From the NCBI GenBank assembly GCA_016928255.1, contig JAFGLB010000013.1:1-62797 (forward strand): a stretch of 62,797 nt of DNA, written 5' to 3'. Position numbers and translations under genes: made by a program. The notes beneath the pieces are model-generated. The model was not told where the DNA came from. It searched no databases and saw nothing but the letters and a program-made list of their open reading frames with translations. Positions 40,558 to 59,144 of this stretch are shown in pieces (the first letter of the stretch is position 1; the number at the start of each line of letters is the position of its first letter). This DNA is from Bacteroidota bacterium. Its GTDB lineage: Bacteria > Bacteroidota > Ignavibacteria > UBA10030.

Positions 40558-41820
40558 TTACATCTTATCGGTTGTCTTTTCTGCTTCACGATAAGTCTTA
40601 TATTTCCTTGCTGTTTCCATCACATTTGCAGGAGGCTGTTTTTTCGCCAATTCATCGCTCATGAATTGCATATAGGGATGGATATAAGAAAAGAACGTCT
40701 TATATGCACTGCAGAGGCAGTTGAGTCCCGGTTCACCGTCCGGAGAAATTTCAAACCTGTGCTTTGGACATCCGCCATGGCATGCAAACAGGTATTCACA
40801 TCTGGTGCAGTATGAAGGAAGGGTTAAAAGTTTATTCTGCCCGAACTTCATTTGCCGGTCTGATCGAGCCATATCTTTTAAGTGTGTATATTTGATATTG
40901 CCTAACCGGTATTCCGGGTAGACATAATGATCGCACGAATACAGATCGCCGTTATGTTCCAGCACCATAGCGCTGCCGCATGTTTTGTCGAACACGCAGA
41001 GGCCCGGAGATTCGCCTGCCCAGTTTGCCAGCGTTGTATCAAAAAGCTGGACAAAGATCCTGCCTACATCATTACGCACCCATTCATCAAAAATTGTGAT
41101 AAGAAATTTTCCGTAATTTTCAGGATTTACCGAGCACTCGGTAACAGAAGTATTCGTTTTACATTCAGGAGTTACCAGGCACAGTTCTTTATCTTTAGCA
41201 CTATGATTTATTCTTTCCACTAGAGGCATGAATTGCATATATCTGCTGCCGATCGTTTTTAAAAAACTATATACCTCAAGAGGGAAACCGGCATTATGCC
41301 GGCCTACGACAGTAAGCGTATTAAATTCGACCTGATGATTTTTCAACTGCTCGATTGTTTTCATCACATCATCGAAATAAGTTTTGCCGGTCCTGTCAAT
41401 ACGGTACTTATTGTGAATTTCCATCGGACCATCTATTGAAATACCGACCAAGAAATTATTATTATGAAAAAATTTGCACCAGTCCGTATTCAGCAGAATT
41501 CCATTGCTTTGGAATGTATTTTCTATGTTTTTCCCATTGCGGTATTTGTTTTGAAGGTTAACTACTTTTTTAAAAAAATCGATGCCCAGTAAAGCGGGCT
41601 CTCCGCCCTGCCAGCCGAATGTTACAGTCGGTGCATCTTGCGATTCGATATATTGCCGGATGAAATCTTCGAGTAATTCATCACTGATAATAAAATCGTG
41701 CACGCCGGGATAAAGCTTTTTCTTCTCAGTATAGTAGCAATAGGTGCAATCGAGATTGCAGATCGGGCCGTGCGGTTTGATTATCAGGTGAAAGTCTGTG
41801 GGATTTTTACGTGAATACAT
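40558..41820 (-). CDS. Radical SAM/SPASM enzyme, anaerobic sulfatase-maturating enzyme (anSME) family
   Basis: The CxxxCxxC motif occurs in the anSME-typical context (IKPHGPICNLDCTYCYY). C-terminal Cys clusters are present (CTRCEYLFACHGGCPKHR). Confidence 0.75.
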   Translation of the reverse strand: MYSRKNPTDFHLIIKPHGPICNLDCTYCYYTEKKKLYPGVHDFIISDELLEDFIRQYIESQDAPTVTFGWQGGEPALLGIDFFKKVVNLQNKYRNGKNIENTFQSNGILLNTDWCKFFHNNNFLVGISIDGPMEIHNKYRIDRTGKTYFDDVMKTIEQLKNHQVEFNTLTVVGRHNAGFPLEVYSFLKTIGSRYMQFMPLVERINHSAKDKELCLVTPECKTNTSVTECSVNPENYGKFLITIFDEWVRNDVGRIFVQLFDTTLANWAGESPGLCVFDKTCGSAMVLEHNGDLYSCDHYVYPEYRLGNIKYTHLKDMARSDRQMKFGQNKLLTLPSYCTRCEYLFACHGGCPKHRFEISPDGEPGLNCLCSAYKTFFSYIHPYMQFMSDELAKKQPPANVMETARKYKTYREAEKTTDKM

Positions 41821-47832: not shown

Positions 47833-48348
47833 TTCTTATCCTTATTTGTTGTTAAAAAACCTGGTGCTTATTGGATTTGCTTTCTCAATTGTGACTGCTG
47901 AATCCGGCTTTTTTCCCGGAATCTGATTTTAATAAAATTCCAGCAGATTTTCGGAATTTCCGACCTTGCTGCTGCAACTTATTGAAGCTCAAGCAGTATA
48001 ATAAGAATATAATAATTATTGATAAATAAATATCCAAAGTTTGAATATCTTTAAAAAAGGTAATTGCGTATAGGGCGGATATTTAATCCCGCCGGTAAAC
48101 TTAGAAAAATAGAAGCAATGAAAGCGGGGACTGTCTAACAGAAAGAGTGTGGAGTGAGAATATTGATGTAATTTTGGTATAACGGATTCTATTGAATATA
48201 CAGCGTTAATTATTTAATATAAGTTTGTTTATTATTATTCTTTCTTATATTTTTCATCTAGCGTCTTCACCCAAGGATTTATTTGCTTTTCTATTTTACT
48301 TAAAGGCATATAAATGCTTTATATTTACTGACTACAGGCCTATTAGTT

Positions 48349-51156
48349 ATGGACTTAATTTTATTGATACAGAACTTTTCTAGTATAAAATCTCTTAAGT
48401 TCAAATTTATTAGCATTTTATTAGTTATTCCCTTGTCTTTAATTTTATTTTCCTGTAATCAGGAAGAAAAAAACAAAGAATTACCAATAATTATTCTAGA
48501 TTCTACCAAAGCCGGTTTTGAAATCAGTATAAAAGAATGGCAAATACTGGGACCATTTCCTGATGATACTACACGATTTACTCAAAGTGATTTATCGACA
48601 GAAAATCCTGGTCTATTCTGCGATTATCTAAAAGATTTCAGATTATCGGAAGGATGCATCGAAGCTTCCGATATTGTTTCTATTAGTAAATCCAAGTCTA
48701 CTCATGTTGAACAACTAACAAATGAATTCACAAACAGATCTGTAAATGATACAAATAGATATTTTTATTTTTCAAATATTTTTAAAAGAAAGGAAAACAC
48801 AACATGCTATGCATTTTGTGAAATATATAGCCCCAAAGAACAAGATGTTTTGTTTGTGGCTGGCATGGATGATGGAATGATTGCCTGGTTAAATAATAAA
48901 GTAATTATTAGCAAAGCTAAAATGGGGGGTATATTGGAATATCAATATATGGTAGTGGCCCATTTAAACAAAGGAAAAAATTTGTTCTATGCAAAAGTAT
49001 ACAATATTCACTACGATTGGGGGATGTTTATAAATATATACAGCTTGACGGCTGCTAAGGATATATTAAGCAAAAACAATTCTTTAAAAATACTGGACAA
49101 TTGGATTTACCACACAGGAGATTCTCTTAACTTCAATATTGCTTTATTCGCCTCTCCATCTCAAAAATGCAAATTAATAATAAGCGACCATCTAAAGAAT
49201 ATCGTATTAATAAAAAATGAAAAAGAAAAGAGAATCTTAAACATTAATATGTTTCAATTTAAAAAGGGAGTATATTCAGCGAAAATATGTACGGACACAA
49301 TTAATTATGAACAATCATTTTATTACGGTAATGACGCTGACTCGTTATTACCGGGGTATATTTCTAAAAGTCGGCAATATAAAGATGAAAAAACAAAGAT
49401 AAATCTTAATGCTTTAATAATACGTTATAAACATTTAATAGATCCTGAAAACAAAAAATTAGAAGATCCTACATGGCAAAGTAAATTAGTTTTCGTAATT
49501 CAAGAACTTGAAGATGTGTTTAATGATTTAGAGCATAGAAAGGATGCTTTTAAACATAAAATAGGCAAACACCTTAGAGGATTTCTCAGCGAAATAGACA
49601 ATCAGGAGCAATTTTACAAAATTTACATACCTCATAAATATGGAAATGGATCTAAACCTCTTCCGGTTGTTGTTTTTGTCCCTTTTGAAACAGCTCCAAC
49701 CAGACCATTTCTGAAAAGTTTTCATGTTGCCAATCTTAATATTGAACAGGAACAGATTCAAGCTTCAGAAAAATATGGATGCATCCTGTTGTGGATAAAT
49801 TCTCGCGGCGGTTACTCACTGGAAAATCCAATTGAGACAACTGATTATTTTGAAGTACTTAAAGCCGTTCGAGAAGATTATAATATTGATGAAAACAGGA
49901 TCTATCTGACTGGAATGTGCAGCGGCGGACTGTCTTCATTAACATTGGGAATGCGTTATCCATCACTTTTTGCAGCAATCGGAATATTCTCTCCGATAAC
50001 CCATCTTAATAAAGTAGCAAAGTCTTTCCTTCCTATTCAAAATGAAACAGCAGATGTATGGTTCGAACAAAATACTCCATTAAGATTTACTGGGAATTAT
50101 TTAAACCTGCCTATCTACATTCTTCATGGAAATAAAAGTGAAGTACCTGAAAAACAATCCTTAGAATTTGTTGATAACTGCAGAAAGAATAATGTCAATC
50201 CATACTTCAAAATAACGTATGATGATAAAAATCCCGAGATCACAAGCACAGATTATACAGTATTTGATTTTTTCAAAGAAAAGCAAAGAAATTCCAATCC
50301 AAAAATTATCGATTTTTCGACTACACAGTTAAAATATAACCGGGCATACTGGGTCACAATCGAGCGGCTGATATCATTTTCTGAAAAAGCCAAAATACGT
50401 GCCGAATATGAACAAAATAACACAATAAAGGTCGAAACTAGAAATATAGCTAAAATCAGCATACAGCTTACGGATTTAGGAATAAACAGAACCAGACCGG
50501 TCAAAGTAATAGCGAATGGAAAGACTGTTTTTAATCAGCTAGCAAAAAATAATAGTATCTCTGTGGACATAACCCCTGAAACAAGCGACTATGATTTGTA
50601 TAAAAATCATGATATAGAAGGTCCTGTTATGCATGCATTTTCTAAAGGCTTTATACTTGCGGACTGCGAAAATTCGATCATTTCGGGAAAAGATAAAATG
50701 AGCGCTCCCTGCGATTCTATTTATTGTGCATGGAAAAGAGATTATTTTGTAGAAGGATGTCGTTATAAAAAGGCCGCGCAAATAAATCAAGAAGATATTA
50801 ATAAATTAAATTTAGTCTTAATAGGTAATCCTGAAAACAATAGTTTAATCAAGAATGTTATTACAAATATTCCGCTTAAGTTTTATGCTGATAGTATTGT
50901 TCTGTGCGGCAAAGTATACAAAGGCAGGGATCTTGGAATAGAAATGATTTACCCTAATCCTCTCAATAGAAGAAAATACATCGTGATGGTCGGATCCAAT
51001 AATTGGGAGAATTTTACTATACCGCAAACTAATTTATCTACGGAAGGTTGGTACGATTTTGTGATTTTTGAAAAAGCATCAGATCAATTGTGGAATATTA
51101 TAGATGTTGGATATTTTGATAATAACTGGCAACATTTAATATCTCTTGTAAATTAA
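48349..51156 (+). CDS. Large lipoprotein with a C-terminal alpha/beta-hydrolase (dienelactone-hydrolase/esterase-like) domain
   Basis: A lipobox is present (LILFS|C). Residues about 430-620 read PLPVVVFVPF...LLWINSRGG...RIYLTGMCSGGLSS...PIYILHGNKSE. GMCSGG fits the G-x-C-x-G-G nucleophile elbow of dienelactone hydrolases. The N-terminal half is unassigned. Confidence 0.5.
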   Translation: MDLILLIQNFSSIKSLKFKFISILLVIPLSLILFSCNQEEKNKELPIIILDSTKAGFEISIKEWQILGPFPDDTTRFTQSDLSTENPGLFCDYLKDFRLSEGCIEASDIVSISKSKSTHVEQLTNEFTNRSVNDTNRYFYFSNIFKRKENTTCYAFCEIYSPKEQDVLFVAGMDDGMIAWLNNKVIISKAKMGGILEYQYMVVAHLNKGKNLFYAKVYNIHYDWGMFINIYSLTAAKDILSKNNSLKILDNWIYHTGDSLNFNIALFASPSQKCKLIISDHLKNIVLIKNEKEKRILNINMFQFKKGVYSAKICTDTINYEQSFYYGNDADSLLPGYISKSRQYKDEKTKINLNALIIRYKHLIDPENKKLEDPTWQSKLVFVIQELEDVFNDLEHRKDAFKHKIGKHLRGFLSEIDNQEQFYKIYIPHKYGNGSKPLPVVVFVPFETAPTRPFLKSFHVANLNIEQEQIQASEKYGCILLWINSRGGYSLENPIETTDYFEVLKAVREDYNIDENRIYLTGMCSGGLSSLTLGMRYPSLFAAIGIFSPITHLNKVAKSFLPIQNETADVWFEQNTPLRFTGNYLNLPIYILHGNKSEVPEKQSLEFVDNCRKNNVNPYFKITYDDKNPEITSTDYTVFDFFKEKQRNSNPKIIDFSTTQLKYNRAYWVTIERLISFSEKAKIRAEYEQNNTIKVETRNIAKISIQLTDLGINRTRPVKVIANGKTVFNQLAKNNSISVDITPETSDYDLYKNHDIEGPVMHAFSKGFILADCENSIISGKDKMSAPCDSIYCAWKRDYFVEGCRYKKAAQINQEDINKLNLVLIGNPENNSLIKNVITNIPLKFYADSIVLCGKVYKGRDLGIEMIYPNPLNRRKYIVMVGSNNWENFTIPQTNLSTEGWYDFVIFEKASDQLWNIIDVGYFDNNWQHLISLVN

Positions 51157-51231
51157 CAATATACTGACGAATATAAAACATAGCTGTCACTTGTAATTAT
51201 CATTAAAACCTAGTTTTATAAAAATCACTTA

Positions 51232-53733
51232 TTAATATTCTTCCCTTTCGCTTAACGATTTGTATTCATTGGCTTTCATAATATTCCCCTGCTTTGAGTA
51301 TAACTCTGATAGATGTTCATAAATATTTGAAAGCTTGATGTTCATGGAGCAATAACTCAAAAATCCATCGGGAATTAAATAATTATTTAATATCGATCTT
51401 TGATCTTTACAAGTAAAATTGTACATAGCACTTGTTTTACTTGCATGGAAAGAATGTTGAATTAATGAAGCCGAAATAACATTCTTATAATATTTTATTG
51501 CCTCACTAACTTGATTATGTTGTTCATAATATTCGCCTAATCGTAATGCTGGATATAAATCAGCTTGATCAAGCAGAGCTGCCTTCTGATAACAACGCAG
51601 CATTTCATTCGTATCTGTAAATTGATAAAGATCGCCGAGATAAAGCCATGGGCGCGGAAGATTAGGTAAAGTGCTAGTTACAGATTTCAATAATATTTTA
51701 GATTTTTCATATTCTTTGCAAAACAAATACAATTTTGCAAGTCGAGCGCCTGCTAATGGATCATTTTTCAAAGTATATATATTTTCTAAGCTATCTATAC
51801 TGTGACGTACTAATATGACTGATTTGTCCGGGAATCGCTTTTGCAAATCACAATAAAATGGCGAATCCAATATGCTGGGCTGCTGCTGAATGGCCTGTCC
51901 GTATTCTATAAAAGCAGAATCTATGTTTCCGACATACTCATAAAACATTCCTAAACCAATATGATAAACAGGAATACTGTGATTCAATTGTATGGCATAT
52001 TGAAAGTAATATTCTGATTTATTAATAGCTTTATTGAATAAATATAACCACCCAAGATTATAGTAAAACTCATCATCCGATGGATTAATCATAACAGCTT
52101 GTCTATAATAATTAATACTCGCTTCAATATGCCTGACTTCTGTTTCATTAAATACATAATTATGTGCTAAGAATGTATCTACATTAAATATTCTATCAAT
52201 CAATCTTTCCTCTGTCAATCCATCGGAAGATAAATAATAGGCATTATTCGGAGCCAACCGAATTGCGGATTCTATATTTTCTTTTGCTCGGATATAATTA
52301 TTATGGTTTATACTTTCAATATAATCGAGATAATAACTTTCTGCTTTTTCCTTTTTTAAAGAATTTATTGCTATAATTAAAAATATTAAGCCGAACAATA
52401 AAAAAGGGATTATGATTTTTAATTTTGAATAAAGGGTAATATGTCTGGGTTCTTTTTTCCCATAAGGTGATTGTGTGTTATGAGCAAATATGAACCAGAT
52501 AAGAAGATGTGCCCCTTTATTATACAAAATTGAAGAATAACTTAAATCCCGAACAAGAATTGCCGCGAAAGCGCTCATCATTAAAATCACAGAAGCTTTT
52601 TCATTCCATTCTTTTAAGTATTTTATTTTACGATGAGAAACATAAAAGAACGAAATAATTAAAAAACAATATGCAGCAATCCCTGGCAATCCTTTTTCAA
52701 CAGCAAGCTGTAAAAAGAAATTAAAAATCCTTCCTGCAAATGGAGCATTGTCGTTTTGATCCTTATACTTTCCATATTCGATGGCAAAATTATTTGATCC
52801 GATGCCAGTCAGTGGATGTTCTTTTATCATCATAAAGCCTGTCTTCCATAAATTTTCTCTTCCTTCATAACTCCGGATCTGTGATGTTGTACGGAACATA
52901 GAAGCTGTTGATAAAACAGAATCGCGAACCGGTGAAATTAAAAATATTATTGCTAATGGAAGAATAATTGCTGCATTAAAAAACAATACTATTTTAAGCG
53001 ATGATAACTTATATATAATAAATAATATACTTGCCACGACAAAAAAAGCTGCAATTGCTATGTACATTCCTCTGAAACAGGAGATGACTGGAATTACTAA
53101 AATTATTATTGGCAACAATAAATATAAAGTTGAAACAAAAGGCTGTTCTTTTTTATACTTAATAAAAAACAACATGATAGAAAAGGGAAGACATACGAGA
53201 TACAAAGTGCTCCATTCTGCTGTAGGAGTACCAATTGGAGCACCAAAAGAAAACGCATTCTTAAAATCATTGATATTTGATAAACCGGCAGACAACATTT
53301 GGGAATAGTTAGAAGAAAAGCCTATAATTCCATCAATGAAAAGAAATACACCTAGCACAGTAATAAAAATATAAATAGCCCTTATTTGATATTCATGTTT
53401 TAGATTAAATTTAATCCAGTAATAGAATAGAATAAAGTAGCTGATATCGGCAATACTATAATAACTATTTTCTCTATAAATTGATGTTAAATAACTTATT
53501 ACTTCTACAACAGCGATCATTGCTATTGCAATATCAAACAAAGTAAACTGATATGTATCTGACGCTAAATCAACATCTAGGATGTGTTTTGACGAGAAAA
53601 GAAAGAATACAACAAGTAAGAATAGACCTGAATTAAAAAATCCGTAAATCGTTAGGAATATTATTAAACAAGTTATTACAATAAAGGAATTGTCAAAAGC
53701 TTTCCTAAGTTCTTCCAATCTCCCTGAAAACAC
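51232..53733 (-). CDS. O-antigen-ligase-like (Wzy_C) polytopic membrane protein fused to C-terminal TPR repeats
   Basis: 833 aa with about 12 or more TM segments. The Wzy_C-type loop is HPLTGIGSNNFAIEYGKY. The C-terminal region of about 380 aa has TPR-like repeats (AIRLAPNNAYY..., YYRQAVMINPSDDEFYYNLGWLY, YFQYAIQLNHSIPVYHIGLGMFY...). Confidence 0.65.
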   Translation of the reverse strand: MFSGRLEELRKAFDNSFIVITCLIIFLTIYGFFNSGLFLLVVFFLFSSKHILDVDLASDTYQFTLFDIAIAMIAVVEVISYLTSIYRENSYYSIADISYFILFYYWIKFNLKHEYQIRAIYIFITVLGVFLFIDGIIGFSSNYSQMLSAGLSNINDFKNAFSFGAPIGTPTAEWSTLYLVCLPFSIMLFFIKYKKEQPFVSTLYLLLPIIILVIPVISCFRGMYIAIAAFFVVASILFIIYKLSSLKIVLFFNAAIILPLAIIFLISPVRDSVLSTASMFRTTSQIRSYEGRENLWKTGFMMIKEHPLTGIGSNNFAIEYGKYKDQNDNAPFAGRIFNFFLQLAVEKGLPGIAAYCFLIISFFYVSHRKIKYLKEWNEKASVILMMSAFAAILVRDLSYSSILYNKGAHLLIWFIFAHNTQSPYGKKEPRHITLYSKLKIIIPFLLFGLIFLIIAINSLKKEKAESYYLDYIESINHNNYIRAKENIESAIRLAPNNAYYLSSDGLTEERLIDRIFNVDTFLAHNYVFNETEVRHIEASINYYRQAVMINPSDDEFYYNLGWLYLFNKAINKSEYYFQYAIQLNHSIPVYHIGLGMFYEYVGNIDSAFIEYGQAIQQQPSILDSPFYCDLQKRFPDKSVILVRHSIDSLENIYTLKNDPLAGARLAKLYLFCKEYEKSKILLKSVTSTLPNLPRPWLYLGDLYQFTDTNEMLRCYQKAALLDQADLYPALRLGEYYEQHNQVSEAIKYYKNVISASLIQHSFHASKTSAMYNFTCKDQRSILNNYLIPDGFLSYCSMNIKLSNIYEHLSELYSKQGNIMKANEYKSLSEREEY

Positions 53734-53739
53734 TCCTAT

Positions 53740-54450
53740 TTATCTCCCCATCATTAACTGCATATTTTCGGATAAAAGACCAACCGCAAATTGGAACCCA
53801 ACGCCCCAAAACCAAACAGATGTAACTAAAACAGCAGATTTCCATTTTTTAAGCTGACAAATTACAGACATTCCAATTGTAAGTACGACTACGTACCATA
53901 CAGAAAATACGTTGAAGTTGTTTAAGAAATTAAAAAGAAGAACATTCTGCGATTTGTCAGCAAGGAAAAAGTCTAACCCTATTATTGTATGCAAATCGGT
54001 TAAGTTGCTTACTGCATCTACACCCTTGATGAGTATGAGCAATACATTAATGATTCCCATGAGTGCCAAAATAAATTCTGAATAAACAACAACCGCATAA
54101 AGAGTTTTAAAGTTGTTTTTTTGTGCATCAAAAAGTATTGCACCTAAATATAAAAACGAAGAAATGAACAACCATTTTAGCAGGAAGGTTATTGGTATAA
54201 GAAGACGCATAAACATTCTATATCTTGACGTTGTAGATGCAACTTTTTGTGCCTGTTCTTCGCTCATTTTGACTGTAAATGTTTCCTCCATTATTTTTTG
54301 GATAAATGGAAGCATAAAATACCCACATATGAGACTCACAGCACAAATGATTAAAAATGCCACAGGCCATTTAGGCGTTTTCTTTATATTTTCAAAAACA
54401 TCTGTTGGAGTTGCAAAAATGTTGATAATGTTAGATAACGCTACAGCCAT
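53740..54450 (-). CDS. Yip1-domain integral membrane protein
   Basis: 236 aa. The N-terminus is Yip1-like (IFATPTDVFENIKKTPKWPVAFLIICAV) and 5 TM segments follow. It overlaps the upstream ABC gene by 10 nt. Confidence 0.6.
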   Translation of the reverse strand: MAVALSNIINIFATPTDVFENIKKTPKWPVAFLIICAVSLICGYFMLPFIQKIMEETFTVKMSEEQAQKVASTTSRYRMFMRLLIPITFLLKWLFISSFLYLGAILFDAQKNNFKTLYAVVVYSEFILALMGIINVLLILIKGVDAVSNLTDLHTIIGLDFFLADKSQNVLLFNFLNNFNVFSVWYVVVLTIGMSVICQLKKWKSAVLVTSVWFWGVGFQFAVGLLSENMQLMMGR

Positions 54451-55229
54451 GACAATTTCCCTTTTTGTTTATCTTCGCTTTTATTCGCAACAACATCAAT
54501 AAATATTTCTTCTAACGATTGATACGTTTCTTGCGTAATCTCATTTTTAATCTTGCTGCGTATATCCTCTGTTTTGGATTGAAAAACTAATTTGCCTTTA
54601 TTAATTATTGCAATTTCGTCACACAGTTTTTCTATTGTATCAAGAACGTGCGAAGTAATTAATACTGTTGTGCCATTTTGCACCATTTGTTTTAAAACAT
54701 CTTTAATTCTTTTGGCTGAGATAGGGTCAATGCCTTCTAACGGTTCGTCTAATATTAATAACTTTGGTTTGTGTATAATTGCTGCGGCAAGAGAGACTTT
54801 TTTCTTCATTCCAGCAGAATATTTTTCTATCCATTCATTTTGTTTCTCGCTCAATTCAAGAAATTCGATAAGCTCTTGTGCGCGTTTTTTTATTTCGTTT
54901 TTCTCAATATCATACATAGAACCGGCAAATTCCAAATATTCCTTAACCGTGAGCTTTTCGAAGTAAGTTGGGCGCTCTAATACGAAACCTACTTGTCGTT
55001 TATATTCATAGTCTCCATCTTTTATTTCTTGGTTACGAAAATATACTTTCCCTGTATCTTTTTTGACCAACCGAGCAATTATATTAATTGTTGTTGACTT
55101 TCCAGCACCGTTAGGGCCTAAAAAACCGAAAATACTATTTTCACTTACCGATAAGTTGAGGTCATCTAAAGCTAATTTTTTAGCAAATAAATATTTTTTA
55201 GAAATATCTTCAAGTGTGAGTACGTTCAT
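54441..55229 (-). CDS. ABC transporter ATP-binding protein (ABC-2/immunity-type)
   Basis: Walker A is GPNGAGKST, the signature is YSAGMKKKVSLA, Walker B is LLILDEP and the H-loop is TSHV. An ATGA overlap joins it to the upstream membrane gene. Confidence 0.9.
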   Translation of the reverse strand: MNVLTLEDISKKYLFAKKLALDDLNLSVSENSIFGFLGPNGAGKSTTINIIARLVKKDTGKVYFRNQEIKDGDYEYKRQVGFVLERPTYFEKLTVKEYLEFAGSMYDIEKNEIKKRAQELIEFLELSEKQNEWIEKYSAGMKKKVSLAAAIIHKPKLLILDEPLEGIDPISAKRIKDVLKQMVQNGTTVLITSHVLDTIEKLCDEIAIINKGKLVFQSKTEDIRSKIKNEITQETYQSLEEIFIDVVANKSEDKQKGKLSWL

Positions 55230-55879
55230 GTTAACTCGATTATCTTATAAATATTTTTAGATAGTTGTTTTGCTGAAACTGGAATTGAAATGTAACGCCA
55301 TAAAAATAGCATGATAAGTATGTATGGATAACAATACACGACAGTATTAAAAATAATTTTGATAACGAAATATGGAATTGAAAATAATATAATAGCAAAG
55401 ATGCTAATGACTATATTTATAAATGCATATTTTAAAGAATTATTTTTTGTAGGACGAGAAGATGTTATATTGCGAAGCATAATAAATGGAAAAACAATTG
55501 TTAAGCCATATGTAAATGCTAAGAATACTTTATAGGTCGTAAGTTGAAACATGAAAAACACAATAAACGAAAACAGTAACAAACAGAATATTGTAACAAA
55601 GGCTGCTGCGAGATTTTTCGCAATTACCAAAGATTGGAAGTGAATAGGGAATAGTTGATATTTCATAAATTCATTATTAGTAATGTCAAAAAGACTATTA
55701 ATTTTATTTTCAAATATGCAAAAGAACAAAATGAATAGAGGTATTACAGTTTGCACTGCAATACTTTGATATAATAATAATAATTTCATGGAGGCAACTA
55801 TTAAGCCTAAGAATAAAGGGGCGACTATAATCTGTCTATACTTTATGAGAAGGATTATTTGAAAAATAATCATTTTCAT
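55226..55879 (-). CDS. Polytopic membrane protein (putative ABC-2 permease component)
   Basis: The product is very hydrophobic with about 6 TM segments. The longest ORF reaches 55930. The ATG at 55879 (MKMIIFQ...) overlaps the upstream stop as TAATG and is the likelier start. Confidence 0.55.
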   Translation of the reverse strand: MKMIIFQIILLIKYRQIIVAPLFLGLIVASMKLLLLYQSIAVQTVIPLFILFFCIFENKINSLFDITNNEFMKYQLFPIHFQSLVIAKNLAAAFVTIFCLLLFSFIVFFMFQLTTYKVFLAFTYGLTIVFPFIMLRNITSSRPTKNNSLKYAFINIVISIFAIILFSIPYFVIKIIFNTVVYCYPYILIMLFLWRYISIPVSAKQLSKNIYKIIELT

Positions 55880-56619
55880 TAAATATATTTTTTTGACACT
55901 ACGTATCCAGAATAAAAAGCCAAAAAACATAAAAGTAATAATAAGCCAAGATATGCAAAAGACAGAAAAACATTATTTTCTTTAGCCGCCAGTAAAAACA
56001 TTATCGGCAAATTCACTACTGGAATATGTAAGCTATAATATTGGGCATTCAACCACATTATTGGGAACCAACTTAAGGAAAGAAATGCAGAAATCTTAGC
56101 ATTTGTGGTTACGGATAATTGCTCTCTAAAAAAAAATATTGCTGCGAACACAATTTCAAAGAAAATCAAGCATAAGATTACAGCTAATGTGAAAATAATA
56201 ACTAATAAGTCAGAGAAGCCTAATAATTTAATTACAATTATTAATGGCACTATACCGTTAAAATATAGTAATATTCGAAAGTCGACAAATGAAATTTTAA
56301 AAAAAAGGAAAAACATCTGGAAAGGTGAATATGGGAAACGATTGATCTTAAAAAAAGAAATACTGAAATGATTGCGATACCTATAATCCAATATTACAAA
56401 ATTTAAGAATATTAAACTAGTAAAGAACATCATCCAAGACTTATAAAACTCTTGCCCTAAAACCATCTTTTGAAAAACGAACCGACCATAGCTAATTCCA
56501 AATACAACAAGACAACCAACACCAATCACCACACTATATCGAAGATTCCATTGCAAAAAACGACGTAAAAGCATTCTATTTAGATCGAACAATATTTTCA
56601 TTCCCTTAGAAGTTCCCAT
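55879..56619 (-). CDS. Polytopic membrane protein (putative ABC-2 permease / immunity component)
   Basis: 246 aa with about 6 TM segments. It is the first gene after the precursor-peptide hairpin. No family was recognised. Confidence 0.55.
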   Translation of the reverse strand: MGTSKGMKILFDLNRMLLRRFLQWNLRYSVVIGVGCLVVFGISYGRFVFQKMVLGQEFYKSWMMFFTSLIFLNFVILDYRYRNHFSISFFKINRFPYSPFQMFFLFFKISFVDFRILLYFNGIVPLIIVIKLLGFSDLLVIIFTLAVILCLIFFEIVFAAIFFFREQLSVTTNAKISAFLSLSWFPIMWLNAQYYSLHIPVVNLPIMFLLAAKENNVFLSFAYLGLLLLLCFLAFYSGYVVSKKYI

Positions 56620-56658
56620 ATATTCTTAATAATAGATACTTATCCAATAAATATATTG

Positions 56659-56700
56659 GGGCTGCTTAAAAACATTCTTTTTTAAGCAGCCCTTTTTTTT
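56659..56700. terminator. Strong hairpin (14-bp stem) flanked by A8/T8, directly downstream of the precursor-peptide gene; probable partial terminator or mRNA stabiliser
   Basis: ggctgcttaaaaa(56659-56672)-cattct-tttttaagcagcc(56679-56692), with T8 on the plus side. On the coding (minus) strand the stem is followed only by CAAUAUAUUUAUU. Confidence 0.5.
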
Positions 56701-56706
56701 AGATCA

Positions 56707-56979
56707 TCAGCAAGCTTCAGATTTCCAACCATTATATAATGCACCAATTGCGCATCCAGCAAGCCCTCCGTAAAACCCAAAATAAGAACCAGCACAGCCG
56801 CCCATGAATCCTCCATATGCTATATCACCTAAGCAAGCCCACCCATCCCAACCACCAACAGATTGCATCATCTGGGTGTCAGTCATTTTTACAGAGCTAT
56901 TTTGTGTGCTAGGCATGGCAGAAACAGTCACTACCAAAACCAAAGATAGAACTAGAATACACGAAATTACCTTTTTCAT
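56707..56979 (-). CDS. Gly/Cys-rich bacteriocin-like precursor peptide carrying a Sec-type signal and an internal double-glycine site
   Basis: The 90-aa product is MKKVISCILVLSLVLVVTVSA|MPSTQNSSVKMTDTQMMQSVGG|WDGWACLGDIAYGGFMGGCAGSYFGFYGGLAGCAIGALYNGWKSEAC. A perfect SD (AAGGAGG) ends 4 nt before the ATG. The 47-aa core has 13 Gly in GxxxG arrays and 4 Cys, resembling Blp/lactobin-type class II bacteriocins. Confidence 0.7.
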   Translation of the reverse strand: MKKVISCILVLSLVLVVTVSAMPSTQNSSVKMTDTQMMQSVGGWDGWACLGDIAYGGFMGGCAGSYFGFYGGLAGCAIGALYNGWKSEAC

Positions 56980-57061
56980 AAATCCTCCTTAAAGGTATGT
57001 TTTTTTGTTTAGTTATTAAAGTTCCCGCCCACTGCGGCCTGTCTGTCAACAATAAACTCCA

Positions 57062-57097
57062 ATACTTCACTTTGGCGGCCGAGCCAAAGTGAAGTAT
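57062..57097. promoter_or_regulatory. Perfect 15-bp inverted repeat (6-nt spacer) between the C39 gene and the precursor gene
   Basis: atacttcactttggc-ggccga-gccaaagtgaagtat was verified base by base. No U-tract follows on the coding strand. A TTGACA hexamer lies about 15 nt downstream on the minus strand. Confidence 0.5.
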
Positions 57098-57137
57098 CTT
57101 CATTCATAATCAACAAACCAGCAGGCAAGGATTATTT

Positions 57138-57677
57138 TTACTTGCTTTCTTTAAACACCAAGGTTTCACCTTTCCATATTTCGCACAATTCTTTTTTCCC
57201 GATCTTCATTCTTCCCATCGCTGGATTACGATAATAAAGAGTATCTTCTCTTACGCTATCAGCAACTATAAAGTGATTATTATTAACATAGAGGATAGAA
57301 GGAAATGAGGAGCACGTAAAATCATTAAACGTAAACCTCCAGCCTTCCGCTTTTAGGCCGTTTTTCTCCGCAATCTTTTTTAAGTCCAGCATAGAAGTGC
57401 CTTTATCAGTAAGCGTTATGCCAGTTTCAATTTTCTTCAGCGATATAGGAATATCGTAATAATCAAATATCATTTTTAATGCACACGGCCCGCATTCATT
57501 TGTGTTCATTTGGAAAACAACTCCATAATTACCGAGATATTCTCCAGGCGTCTTCCAAAATGCATGTTGATCATTTTTTCCTGAGTTATGGGATTCTAAT
57601 CCAAAAACAATAAAAGCAACAACAATCAATACCATTACAATTAAACCAAAGAGAGCATATTTTTTCTTTTTATTCAT
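57138..57677 (-). CDS. Stand-alone, N-terminally membrane-anchored C39-family (bacteriocin-processing) cysteine peptidase domain protein
   Basis: 179 aa. An MNKKKK segment plus a TM helix precedes the domain. The C39 motifs are QMNTNECGPCALKMIFDYYDIP (Gln/Cys) and NNNHFIVADSV (His), with Asn at His+16 where Asp is usual. No ABC transporter is fused. Confidence 0.75.
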   Translation of the reverse strand: MNKKKKYALFGLIVMVLIVVAFIVFGLESHNSGKNDQHAFWKTPGEYLGNYGVVFQMNTNECGPCALKMIFDYYDIPISLKKIETGITLTDKGTSMLDLKKIAEKNGLKAEGWRFTFNDFTCSSFPSILYVNNNHFIVADSVREDTLYYRNPAMGRMKIGKKELCEIWKGETLVFKESK

Positions 57678-58243
57678 AAATGTTTTATTCCCGCATCTTG
57701 ATTGTTGTTTTTAAATTGTAAAAAGGCTTTTTGCAATTGAACCACACTTTGAGTGCTTACTATAAATCTAACCATCTGAAAATCCTTATTGAGGAAATAT
57801 ATCACTGGAATTGGTAGAACATGAAAAGCATCTTTTGCTTTATTCTTTAAGTCTAAATACACAGGAAAGACAACATTCATCTCTTTGATGAAATCAATTG
57901 TTTCTTCTTTACCATCGATAGAAATACAGAATATATCGATAGAATCATCGATTAATGGCTTCAACAAGAGTAAGTTTTTCATTCCATCTTTACAATGAGA
58001 ACAACCTGTGGAAAAGAATAGAATGATCGTTTTCTTGTTAATAAGGGATCTTATCGCAACATCTTTTCCATCTAAAGTCTGAACTTCTGCAGGCGGTACA
58101 GTATCGCCAATGGCAAGCGGTTGAACAATAAAATTATTCTGTATATAAAGATATCCAAAACAACCGGCAATTATTATAAATGCAATTATGGACAACGCGA
58201 TTGCTTTACGTGAATGAAGTGGTATCCTATCCGTTTTACCCAT
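57674..58243 (-). CDS. Membrane-anchored TlpA/ResA-like thioredoxin-fold protein (CxxC)
   Basis: 189 aa with an N-terminal TM anchor. The motif FFSTGCSHCKDG sits in an AhpC/TSA-TlpA-like context. An ATGA overlap joins it to the C39 gene. Confidence 0.75.
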   Translation of the reverse strand: MGKTDRIPLHSRKAIALSIIAFIIIAGCFGYLYIQNNFIVQPLAIGDTVPPAEVQTLDGKDVAIRSLINKKTIILFFSTGCSHCKDGMKNLLLLKPLIDDSIDIFCISIDGKEETIDFIKEMNVVFPVYLDLKNKAKDAFHVLPIPVIYFLNKDFQMVRFIVSTQSVVQLQKAFLQFKNNNQDAGIKHL

Positions 58244-58496
58244 TACTATGCCTAGAATGATTTACATTTCTTCTGATAAGAAAAACAATTCAAATAGGCT
58301 TGGCGCTAATATACTTTTACATAATGCGTTAGCTTGATTTATATTAAATAATCTTCACAATAAAGTCAAATCTTTTAAATAAATAAAATGAATTATGATA
58401 AAGTCAGTTATTGTGGCAACTTTTTGAACGACAGAGTGTGTATGTTTTGCAGATCGTTCAAAGTCTATAGAACAAACCGCGGATACCCTGTATATT

Positions 58497-59144
58497 GTGA
58501 AAGGGACTGAAAAAGCATTGCTCATAGATACAGGAGCCAGATTTAAGAATCTCGATACAGTTATCAGCGGTATCACCAAAAAACCTCTTATGGTAGTAAT
58601 CACGCATGCGCATGGCGATCATGCCGGGAATATAGATTTTTTTGATGAGATATGGATGCATCCTGCCGACACTATTATATTGCCAAGTTACGAAGGCAAG
58701 GTTAATTTTGTAAAAGACGGAGATATTTTTGATCTGGGAGGGACAAAAATCGAAGTAAGCCATATGCCCGGCCATACTCCGGGTTCCATAGTTCTTCTCG
58801 ATAGAAAAACAGGCAACTGCTATTCCGGTGATGCTTTCGGCGCGAATCATGTGTGGCTGCAGCTTAAGCCGCTTTCGCCGATGCAGACATATGTAAATTC
58901 ATGCATTAAAATGGAAAAGCTTATGGACAGCGGAATTACAAAAGTCTATTGCGGTCATTATGTTTACGCAAAAAAGCCTTATGATAAATCTTACATAACA
59001 ACAATGCGTCAGCTGGCCGAAGGTCTTATCAACGGTACTGCTCCGGAAGCCCAGCCTTATTCCAATAAATCGGGCTGTTCTAATCCTATGTCGGTAACAA
59101 GCGGTCCCGCCACAATTGTTTTTGATCCGGACAATCTGAAATAA
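58497..59144 (+). CDS. Metallo-beta-lactamase-fold hydrolase (start uncertain; possibly 5'-truncated)
   Basis: The motif HAHGDH is present, along with later His/Asp ligands (MPGHTPGS, GDAF, CGH). The only in-frame start after the TGA at 58425 is the GTG at 58497. Homology-like sequence (IEQTADTLYIV) continues upstream of that GTG. Confidence 0.7.
   Translation: MKGTEKALLIDTGARFKNLDTVISGITKKPLMVVITHAHGDHAGNIDFFDEIWMHPADTIILPSYEGKVNFVKDGDIFDLGGTKIEVSHMPGHTPGSIVLLDRKTGNCYSGDAFGANHVWLQLKPLSPMQTYVNSCIKMEKLMDSGITKVYCGHYVYAKKPYDKSYITTMRQLAEGLINGTAPEAQPYSNKSGCSNPMSVTSGPATIVFDPDNLK

Follow-up and report, generated by a model that had tools for sequence, protein, structure and literature searches.

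A membrane-anchored C39 peptidase coupled to a thioredoxin-fold protein in an Ignavibacteria cassette: predicted periplasmic maturation of a double-glycine peptide and a conserved intergenic RNA

The textbook account of double-glycine leaders is that of export signals removed on the cytoplasmic side of a dedicated ATP-binding cassette (ABC) transporter. The locus described here raises the question of where, and on what, a C39 peptidase acts when it is encoded as a small protein in its own right and directly behind a thioredoxin-fold protein. The locus is situated on contig JAFGLB010000013.1 of assembly GCA_016928255.1, from a Bacteroidota bacterium (Ignavibacteria; UBA10030), and the whole stretch analyzed, positions 1 to 62,797 of the forward strand (62,797 nucleotides [nt]), is referred to below as the window. 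An earlier note, made from the sequence alone, had singled out positions 57138 to 58243 as encoding a stand-alone C39 peptidase with a Cys-His-Asn arrangement, translationally coupled to a CxxC thioredoxin, both predicted to face the periplasm. The analysis reported here points to a module which would mature a Sec-exported double-glycine peptide on the outer face of the inner membrane, a reading that we regard as probable rather than secure.

The peptidase gene (57138..57677, minus strand) encodes a stand-alone, signal-anchored C39 double-glycine peptidase of 179 residues, of which residues 51-178 match the Pfam family Peptidase_C39 (PF03412) with 104.2 bits (E 6e-30), the cut-off being 22. 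Its N terminus, MNKKKK, is followed by an uncharged hydrophobic segment of 21 residues, and an AlphaFold2 model based on 18 homologues (mean predicted local distance difference test score 83) comprises a helix at residues 2-31, a disordered linker and a compact C39 fold. The description of the protein as an N-terminal anchor and a protease domain only was, therefore, borne out by both Pfam and the model. The structural comparison which had been suggested as a check likewise returned the expected C39 domains, as a Foldseek search with the model placed LahT150 first (6mpz; E 7e-13, template modeling score 0.82), followed by PCAT1 (peptidase domain) and ComA; HlyB, through its C39-like domain, was also among the matches. 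The catalytic positions are Gln56 (oxyanion), Cys62, His135 and Asn151-Pro152, and the Q...C-G, H and D-P columns of the family profile line up with those of LahT150 and PCAT1. The family set comprised the 18 close homologues and the best 150 representatives (50% identity) of an exhaustive C39 profile search, which gave 12,500 matches at E<1e-3 and 120 representatives at E<1e-30; most of these best 150 are 165-235 residues long with a single N-terminal hydrophobic segment, and the catalytic Gln, Cys and His are kept in approximately 155 of 166 family members. The best NCBIfam match, to the NHLP-type peptidase-containing ABC transporters (PCATs), covers the first ~130 model positions only and scores 79 against a cut-off of 853. 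The architecture of PCAT/AMS proteins, in which a C39 domain is joined to ABC transmembrane and nucleotide-binding domains, is absent, the window protein consisting of one helix and the C39 domain, and the equivalog models of FapD (36.8 bits against 330) and FilB (37 against 475) are not reached. The window peptidase is a true C39 family member by sequence and fold, and neither a PCAT nor a FapD/FilB equivalog.

The Asn read from the sequence at His+16 is confirmed as Asn151 (codon AAT, 57225-57227), with Pro next to it, and an independent metagenome contig of 109x depth carries the identical sequence with zero variants. It stands where C39 peptidases have Asp as the third triad residue, as in the Cys27/His101/Asp117 triad of LahT, whose Asp is likewise at His+16 (PMC6363468). 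Among the 158 informative family members, which keep both Cys and His, this position is Asp in 154 and Asn in four, one more member being truncated there. The four with Asn comprise the window protein together with the three closest to it (57-89% identity); they keep all other catalytic residues and the flanking RNPAxGRMK motif, and the exchange corresponds to a single G-to-A transition (GAT to AAT). While the Cys-His-Asn arrangement is thus real, it does not hold as a headline, being instead a quirk of the window's small clade, a minor feature rather than a property of the system. Papain is itself a Cys-His-Asn enzyme with its Asn at His+16, and because papain-type enzymes orient their His with either Asn or Asp, the Asn151 enzyme is expected to be active.

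The thioredoxin-fold gene (57674..58243, minus strand) precedes the peptidase gene, and the two overlap at 57674-57677, where the forward-strand tcat reads ATGA on the minus strand, the ATG of the C39 gene overlapping the TGA of its neighbor exactly as previously described. A one-genome-per-species scan identified 40 related loci, all from uncultured Ignavibacteriota, Bacteroidota-labelled and Acidobacteriota genomes, which together with the window form the set of 41 cassettes considered here. Clustering of neighboring open reading frames (ORFs) recovered the C39 gene in all 41 cassettes, a Yip1 gene in 29, a MauE-family gene in 16 and an ABC ATPase gene in 14; the co-occurrence survey which the earlier note had called for found a thioredoxin gene directly 5' of the C39 gene in 31. 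Many of the related loci show the 4-nt overlap again, and in four loci without a thioredoxin gene the contig ends just upstream of the C39 gene.

The pairing extends to single polypeptides. At least 11 proteins among the profile matches, namely P0050, P0081, P0102, P0111, P0121, P0136, P0139, P0150, P0153, P0155 and P0157, combine a CxxC thioredoxin domain and a C39 domain in one chain of 274-345 residues, AhpC-TSA and Peptidase_C39 being verified by Pfam in the three fusions that were checked. Most fusions with a complete N terminus start with a single transmembrane segment, and because both domains are fused behind this one segment they would be located on the same side of the membrane. Several fusions carry dipeptides without His between the two Cys residues (CSYC, CGFC, CPAC, CRPC, CPSC and CLKC). 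The fusions argue that the protease and oxidoreductase activities cooperate, and the earlier suggestion of coupled proteolysis and thiol-disulfide chemistry on an adjacent Cys-containing peptide gains support, as a prediction, from adjacency, fusion and the Cys parity of the putative substrates.

The substrate with four Cys that had been anticipated corresponds to a 90-residue precursor peptide (56707..56979, minus strand), whose ORF adjoins the C39 gene and carries an AAGGAGG ribosome-binding site 5 nt 5' of the ATG. No Pfam or NCBIfam family matches it or the related precursors described below. It may be divided into a Sec-type signal peptide (residues 1-21; 56917..56979), a double-glycine (GG) propeptide (residues 22-43; 56851..56916) ending in ...MMQSVGG, and a Gly-rich hydrophobic core (residues 44-90; 56710..56850), all on the minus strand and with all four Cys after the GG site; in this order, the precursor reads MKKVISCILVLSLVLVVTVSA / MPSTQNSSVKMTDTQMMQSVGG / WDGWAC...SEAC. 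A leader profile was derived from 34 precursors, i.e., that of the window and those of about 33 related loci, each encoded directly downstream of a C39 gene by a small ORF which has a strong ribosome-binding site. Residues 1 to ~20 resemble a Sec signal peptide, with MKK, then a hydrophobic stretch and, in many cases, a small-x-small site (e.g., VSA), after which the ~22-residue GG propeptide follows, bringing the total leader to 40-43 residues in 26 of the 34. Within the propeptide, Gly is present at -1 in 30/34 and at -2 in 33/34, a Leu, Ile, Val, Met or Phe residue at -4 in 23/34, at -7 in 31/34 and at -12 in 31/34, and Glu, Gln or Asp at -8 in 26/34; the window propeptide has Met at -12 and -7, Ser at -4 and Val at -3. 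The profile displays the GG and the hydrophobic -4, -7 and -12 positions which characterize double-glycine leaders, LahT150 being known to bind these three positions in hydrophobic pockets (PMC6363468). In classical precursors the GG leader begins with the initiator Met and no Sec signal peptide is present, whereas here ~20 signal-like residues stand ahead of it.

The precursor cores are hydrophobic and Gly/Ala-rich but differ widely in sequence. Their Cys content is four in 21 precursors, two in six, six in five and five in two, and hence even in 32/34. Weak, sub-threshold matches link the propeptide to class IIb bacteriocin leader models. A lipoprotein signal, V-I-S-C at precursor residues 4-7, was considered and rejected, as this Cys precedes the hydrophobic region. 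In five related loci (L004, L009, L011, L016 and L027) the propeptide carries a conserved Cys at -5, as in MSCAVGG, MNCTVGA and MQCVIGG, which suggests a possible interaction of the leader itself with the oxidoreductase; this Cys is missing from the window propeptide. At the precursor position of an Ignavibacteriota locus (L001:8765-8911), a leaderless Gly/Cys-rich peptide of 48 residues (MSAGCWW...) with a strong ribosome-binding site is encoded.

The predicted location of both enzymes outside the cytoplasm was examined by comparison. In the window C39 protein, MNKKKK lies ahead of the helix and a net negative flank behind it, and both window proteins are strongly basic on the N-terminal side of the hydrophobic segment, with a neutral or acidic flank on the C-terminal side. 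For 107 stand-alone C39 members, the mean net charge is +2.4 for the N-flank and +0.8 for the C-flank, the former being the more positive in 79 members and the less positive in 16. The thioredoxin relatives ResA and StoA are extracytoplasmic enzymes (PMC2665060), and FapD, for which a periplasmic location was established experimentally, is an active C39 peptidase dependent on its catalytic Cys (PMC5557850). As related genomes encode TonB and type IX secretion markers, which are consistent with two membranes, the outside would here be the periplasm. Positive-inside bias, single-transmembrane fusions, Sec-type substrates and extracytoplasmic thioredoxin relatives together lead us to predict that the C39 and thioredoxin domains are periplasmic; the periplasm-facing pair of the earlier note is, therefore, supported by comparative evidence and by the Sec-type signal peptides of the precursors, and stays a prediction.

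The partner protein is a membrane-anchored thioredoxin-fold oxidoreductase of 189 residues with a C-S-H-C motif, its anchor (MGKTDRIPLHSRK followed by AIALSIIAFIIIAGCFGYLYI) combining a basic N terminus with one uncharged segment of 21 residues. It matches the Pfam families AhpC-TSA (PF00578; E 6e-13) and Thioredoxin_8, and ResA and StoA are its nearest solved structures. Fold, N-terminal anchor and CxxC, the hallmarks of extracytoplasmic thioredoxins, are all present. A family-level score and the reductase-type C-x-P-C motif, the hallmarks of ResA, TlpA and CcmG, are not, since the best NCBIfam match, the ResA subfamily, reaches 61.8 bits against a cut-off of 170, with TlpA (15.8 against 230) and DsbE (17.8 against 123) also under their cut-offs. 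C-x-H-C is found in 30 of 31 partner thioredoxins and is precisely CPHC, the DsbA motif, in ten. ResA, TlpA and CcmG have Pro at that active-site position. A His there raised the redox potential of a thioredoxin by 66 mV, although context matters too (PMC4395160). The "TlpA-like" label applied earlier therefore describes the fold, while the chemistry probably differs, C-x-H-C being the pattern of DsbA and protein disulfide isomerase.

A MauE/DoxX-family membrane protein with a CGCFG motif is encoded in 16 of the 41 cassettes (e.g., L030:14141-14638) and may be a candidate for reoxidizing the thioredoxin; a search of the window for a MauE-like gene or a CGCF motif found none. MauE and the thioredoxin-like MauD act together when the disulfide-rich subunit of methylamine dehydrogenase is matured. 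Because of the C-x-H-C motif, the presence of MauE in relatives and the even Cys counts, an oxidase or isomerase acting on the peptide is favored, and this role appears more likely for the thioredoxin partner than that of a ResA/TlpA-type reductase.

The interval between the C39 stop and the precursor start contains a further conserved element, a structured RNA of ~112 nt with four nested helices and a pseudoknot (57018..57131, minus strand), which is supported by covariation and which in most loci ends about 38-42 nt 5' of the precursor ATG. A structure-blind MAFFT alignment of 22 loci, folded with RNAalifold, yielded 34 nested pairs, 27 of which show compensatory changes; 90% of the cells at paired positions are paired, compared with 39-49% in slid-partner controls, and none of 500 shuffles reached the observed value. 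The apical loop pairs and covaries with the junction 3' of helix 2 to form the pseudoknot, for which the strand pairs CGGCC/GGCCG, CGGGC/GCCCG, UGGCCC/GGGCCA, CUGUCC/GGACAG and CGGUCC/GGACCG occur, its central pair (61/106) being GC in 14, CG in 13 and UA in three sequences. With a covariance model, 32 of the 40 related loci were found to contain the motif, most cassettes having a single copy and L016 three, and no match occurred elsewhere in 662 kb. The copies lie on the gene strand, just after the C39 gene and, wherever a precursor was identified, just before it; the motif also occurs upstream of the leaderless L001 peptide. That the RNA is made in the direction of the gene itself is indicated by its many G-U pairs and by the much lower score of the reverse strand. 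The window copy has a minimum free energy of -55.3 kcal/mol (z -7.5), and Rfam 15 returned nothing at gathering thresholds in the whole window and chance-level matches only (E>0.1) in the RNA region. The apical hairpin is terminator-like, but a plain terminator was rejected, as the enclosing helices and the covarying pseudoknot make up a more elaborate fold. The intergenic element is, on this covariation evidence, a well-supported new structured RNA, for which an element that processes or stabilizes the precursor mRNA, a ligand- or protein-responsive leader and a self-cleaving RNA are the candidate roles. Immediately after the precursor stop lies a terminator-like hairpin with a 14-bp stem and a T-rich tail (56659..56692, minus strand), which was identified by a consensus scan only and is not evidence of function; it also scores on the plus strand, where its T run is stronger.

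Based on these data, we propose the following sequence of events. The 90-residue precursor would be exported by Sec via its N-terminal signal peptide, which signal peptidase I probably cuts near VSA|M. The 22-residue propeptide would then present the peptide to the periplasm-facing C39 domain for cleavage after Gly43, Asn151 orienting the catalytic His in place of the usual Asp, while the co-translated, anchored C-S-H-C thioredoxin would form or shuffle disulfides among the four Cys of the core. The product would be a hydrophobic peptide rich in Gly and with disulfides, similar to a class II bacteriocin or microcin, and self-protection or onward transport would most plausibly be the task of the downstream-encoded ABC ATPase with its membrane partners and of the Yip1/YknW protein. 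Domains, gene order, fusions, leader pattern and Cys parity come from sequence and comparison, while topology, both cleavage events, the direction of the redox reaction and the role of the product are inferred; because every step past domain identity and gene context is of the latter kind, we do not hold the mechanism to be more than probable.

Several observations weigh against this proposal. The window has no obvious outer-membrane route for a product, and its cassette has no partner of the MauE, DsbB or VKOR kind by which the thioredoxin could be reoxidized. The leaderless L001 peptide indicates that the C39 peptidase may have other substrates. Finally, one metatranscriptome from the same study gave zero coverage of the region.

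The remainder of the cassette lies downstream of the precursor on the minus strand. Two overlapping ORFs (55226..56619) encode polytopic membrane proteins of 246 and 234 residues without a significant Pfam or NCBIfam match, the same place in related cassettes being taken by one protein of 525-529 residues or two of ~225-250; they are candidates for the permease that would work with the ABC ATPase encoded next to them. The latter (54441..55229; Pfam ABC_tran, E 8e-31) is an ATP-binding protein of the DrrA/lantibiotic-protection type, with 227 bits for drrA and 177 bits for galliderm_ABC, both under the NCBIfam cut-offs. It is followed by a membrane protein of the Yip1/YknW family (53740..54450; Pfam Yip1, E 3e-17; NCBIfam YknW_fam, 82 bits, under the cut-off of 110) and by an 833-residue protein with a Wzy_C (O-antigen-ligase-like) membrane domain (E 7e-17) and TPR repeats matching TPR families (51232..53733), which occupies the same cassette position in the closest relatives only (L001/L010, L003 and the P0002 contig). 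By analogy, the ABC and Yip1 genes may provide immunity or onward transport, which is the weakest part of the model. The G+C content is 30-34% across the cassette region at ~48-58 kb (48001..58000), compared with ~38-46% in most of the window, which suggests that the cassette is a horizontally acquired, mobile accessory island; the low-G+C region includes a neighboring gene for a 935-residue esterase/S9-peptidase-like protein (48349..51156).

Further genes were noted in related cassettes and in the surroundings. A secreted protein of ~175 residues, without a family match, follows the precursor gene in many related cassettes, where it forms two sequence clusters of 12 and nine loci (L004:11024-11575, L027:11054-11587, L024:3494-4048 and about 20 others); it is not present in the window and could have an immunity or accessory role. 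Approximately 15 kb away, a radical SAM/SPASM-domain protein of 420 residues is encoded (40558..41820, minus strand), an enzyme type which often matures peptides. On the other side, a metallo-beta-lactamase-fold ORF (58388..59144, plus strand) has a GTG start inside the domain (profile position 13) and a 40-residue ORF in another frame just upstream, and may reflect a frameshift or a truncated N terminus.

The nature of the genes downstream of the precursor bears on the alternative which survives best, i.e., that processing occurs as proposed but that the product is an envelope-resident or signaling peptide, which the ABC, Yip1 and Wzy_C-TPR proteins handle or modify rather than conferring immunity. 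In Bacillus, ABC and YknW-type proteins give protection against the SDP toxin which the cell itself makes, a precedent that speaks for immunity instead, as do the conserved leader combined with hypervariable cores, which is the usual signature of bacteriocins and of peptides made by the ribosome and modified after translation (RiPPs), the low G+C content suggestive of a mobile accessory island and the weak propeptide matches to class IIb bacteriocin leader models. In favor of an envelope or signaling function are the lack of an outer-membrane exporter in the window, the very hydrophobic products, which could remain in the membrane, the conservation of the O-antigen-ligase-like TPR protein in the nearest cassettes and the precedent of the periplasmic C39 peptidase FapD, which serves fiber biogenesis and not a bacteriocin (PMC5557850). 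We consider such a function unlikely, though deserving of serious attention.

A different role for the thioredoxin, in which it would act as a reductase or redox switch for Cys62 of the protease in an oxidizing periplasm and not in peptide folding, appears doubtful, though still to be reckoned with. A cysteine protease outside the cytoplasm does run the risk of thiol oxidation, the thioredoxin fold is nearest to the reductases ResA and StoA, and at least 11 proteins join both domains in one chain. In the window clade, moreover, the catalytic Cys is part of a thioredoxin-like C62-G-P-C65 motif (57483..57494; seven of 166 family members), a possible redox switch on the protease which might bear on redox control, as these residues could form an inhibitory disulfide. 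The second Cys of this motif is, however, missing in 159 of the 166 members, yet the pairing with thioredoxin is general. The partner thioredoxins have the oxidase/isomerase pattern C-x-H-C in all but one case where ResA, TlpA and CcmG reductases have Pro, every substrate core has at least two Cys with an even number in nearly all, and a MauE-family partner is encoded in 16 cassettes. The two roles of the thioredoxin are not mutually exclusive.

It is very unlikely that the C39 protein is instead cytoplasmic, where it would form a split PCAT-like exporter with the ABC proteins encoded downstream, serve as its detached peptidase and cleave the precursor before export. All characterized bacteriocin-processing C39 domains do work on the cytoplasmic side (PMC6363468, PMC5557850), the same operon encodes an ABC ATPase together with membrane proteins further downstream, and the best NCBIfam match of the C39 domain is an NHLP-type PCAT. 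A PCAT substrate would, however, have no use for a Sec-type signal peptide before its GG leader, the fusions place the C39 domain and a ResA-like thioredoxin on one side behind a single transmembrane segment, and the charge bias favors an N-in/C-out orientation; in addition, the ATPase is a separate DrrA-type subunit rather than a PCAT-type half transporter, and only 14 of the 41 cassettes have the ABC module. That the Asn151 protein is catalytically dead and binds the leader as a chaperone, in the manner of the HlyB C39-like domain found among its structural matches, is scarcely credible, for while such inactive domains exist and Asn replaces the near-universal Asp in the window clade only, inactive C39-like domains lose the Cys and not the third residue, Gln56, Cys62 and His135 are all kept here, the conservation of RNPAxGRMK in four Asn proteins of 57-89% identity argues for purifying selection, the precursors of the Asn clade keep the GG site, and papain works with the same triad.

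The proposed periplasmic maturation module shares features with several known systems without coinciding with any of them. It resembles the PCAT/AMS transporters LahT, PCAT1, ComA and CvaB in C39 family, fold and Gln/Cys/His positions, and their substrates in the double-glycine leader with hydrophobic -4, -7 and -12 positions (PMC6363468). It differs in that the C39 domain forms a separate 179-residue, one-helix protein, predicted to be periplasmic, with Asn for the triad Asp, and in that its substrate bears an additional Sec-type signal peptide ahead of the GG leader. FapD of the Pseudomonas functional-amyloid system, as well as FilB, is also a stand-alone extracytoplasmic C39 protein, a location which is predicted for the window enzyme; sequence similarity is weak, and FapD has a cleavable signal peptide where the window protein has an anchor. 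The substrate of FapD is unclear and has no leader of the canonical GG type; unlike the peptidase of this cassette, FapD is also not paired with a thioredoxin. A literature search for a stand-alone, membrane-anchored or periplasmic C39 peptidase paired with a thioredoxin found only FapD, which is not proof of novelty.

Dedicated thioredoxin-like helpers are known from GG-leader bacteriocin loci, i.e., PedC/PapC, BlpG and, for sublancin, BdbA/BdbB, which assist in establishing the right disulfides (PMC4919988), and the present cassette likewise combines a CxxC thioredoxin-fold protein in one operon with a GG-leader peptide and a C39 peptidase. Those systems are Gram-positive and their C39 domain is cytoplasmic within the exporter, whereas here the oxidoreductase is translationally coupled, and sometimes fused, to the peptidase; the likeness is functional only, the PedC/BrcD-type accessory model being none of the NCBIfam matches at E<=0.01. 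ResA, StoA, TlpA, CcmG and the MauD-MauE pair share the fold and the N-terminal membrane anchor, and the last has its counterpart in the MauE-family protein of 16 cassettes; scores under the cut-offs, C-x-H-C instead of C-x-P-C and the lack of MauE in the window set the present protein apart. The peptide itself is like class II microcins and bacteriocins (e.g., microcin V) in being a Gly-rich, hydrophobic GG-leader peptide with predicted disulfides in an accessory-island context, although those leave the cell by PCAT/TolC or PCAT and carry no Sec signal peptide. By analogy, the Gram-positive class II bacteriocin and sublancin loci, where a single GG-leader peptide is served by both a C39 exporter and a thioredoxin-like helper (PMC4919988), would be functionally nearest, with FapD as the periplasmic precedent.

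Periplasmic GG processing of a Sec-exported precursor, the tight coupling or fusion of peptidase and oxidoreductase, and a dedicated RNA appear to be new. Taken together, and more tentatively than the maturation step itself, these elements may represent an undescribed and widespread route of Ignavibacteriota, Bacteroidota and Acidobacteriota, in which Sec export is followed by a periplasmic GG cut and disulfide formation through a C39-thioredoxin pair, and in which expression is governed via a new class of pseudoknotted RNA that could act as a riboswitch, bind a protein as a leader or cleave itself; this is a proposal that we would not yet call probable. With the peptidase outside the membrane, as predicted, the GG leader would act here as a handle for recognition in the periplasm rather than as a signal for export. 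The question of a periplasmic C39 peptidase is directly testable in this system because, unlike for FapD, an obvious substrate is encoded next door. A coupled or fused protease-oxidoreductase could, furthermore, be a compact tool for producing disulfide-rich peptides in Gram-negative hosts, and the cassette layout from which it is drawn is common to dozens of uncultured bacteria.

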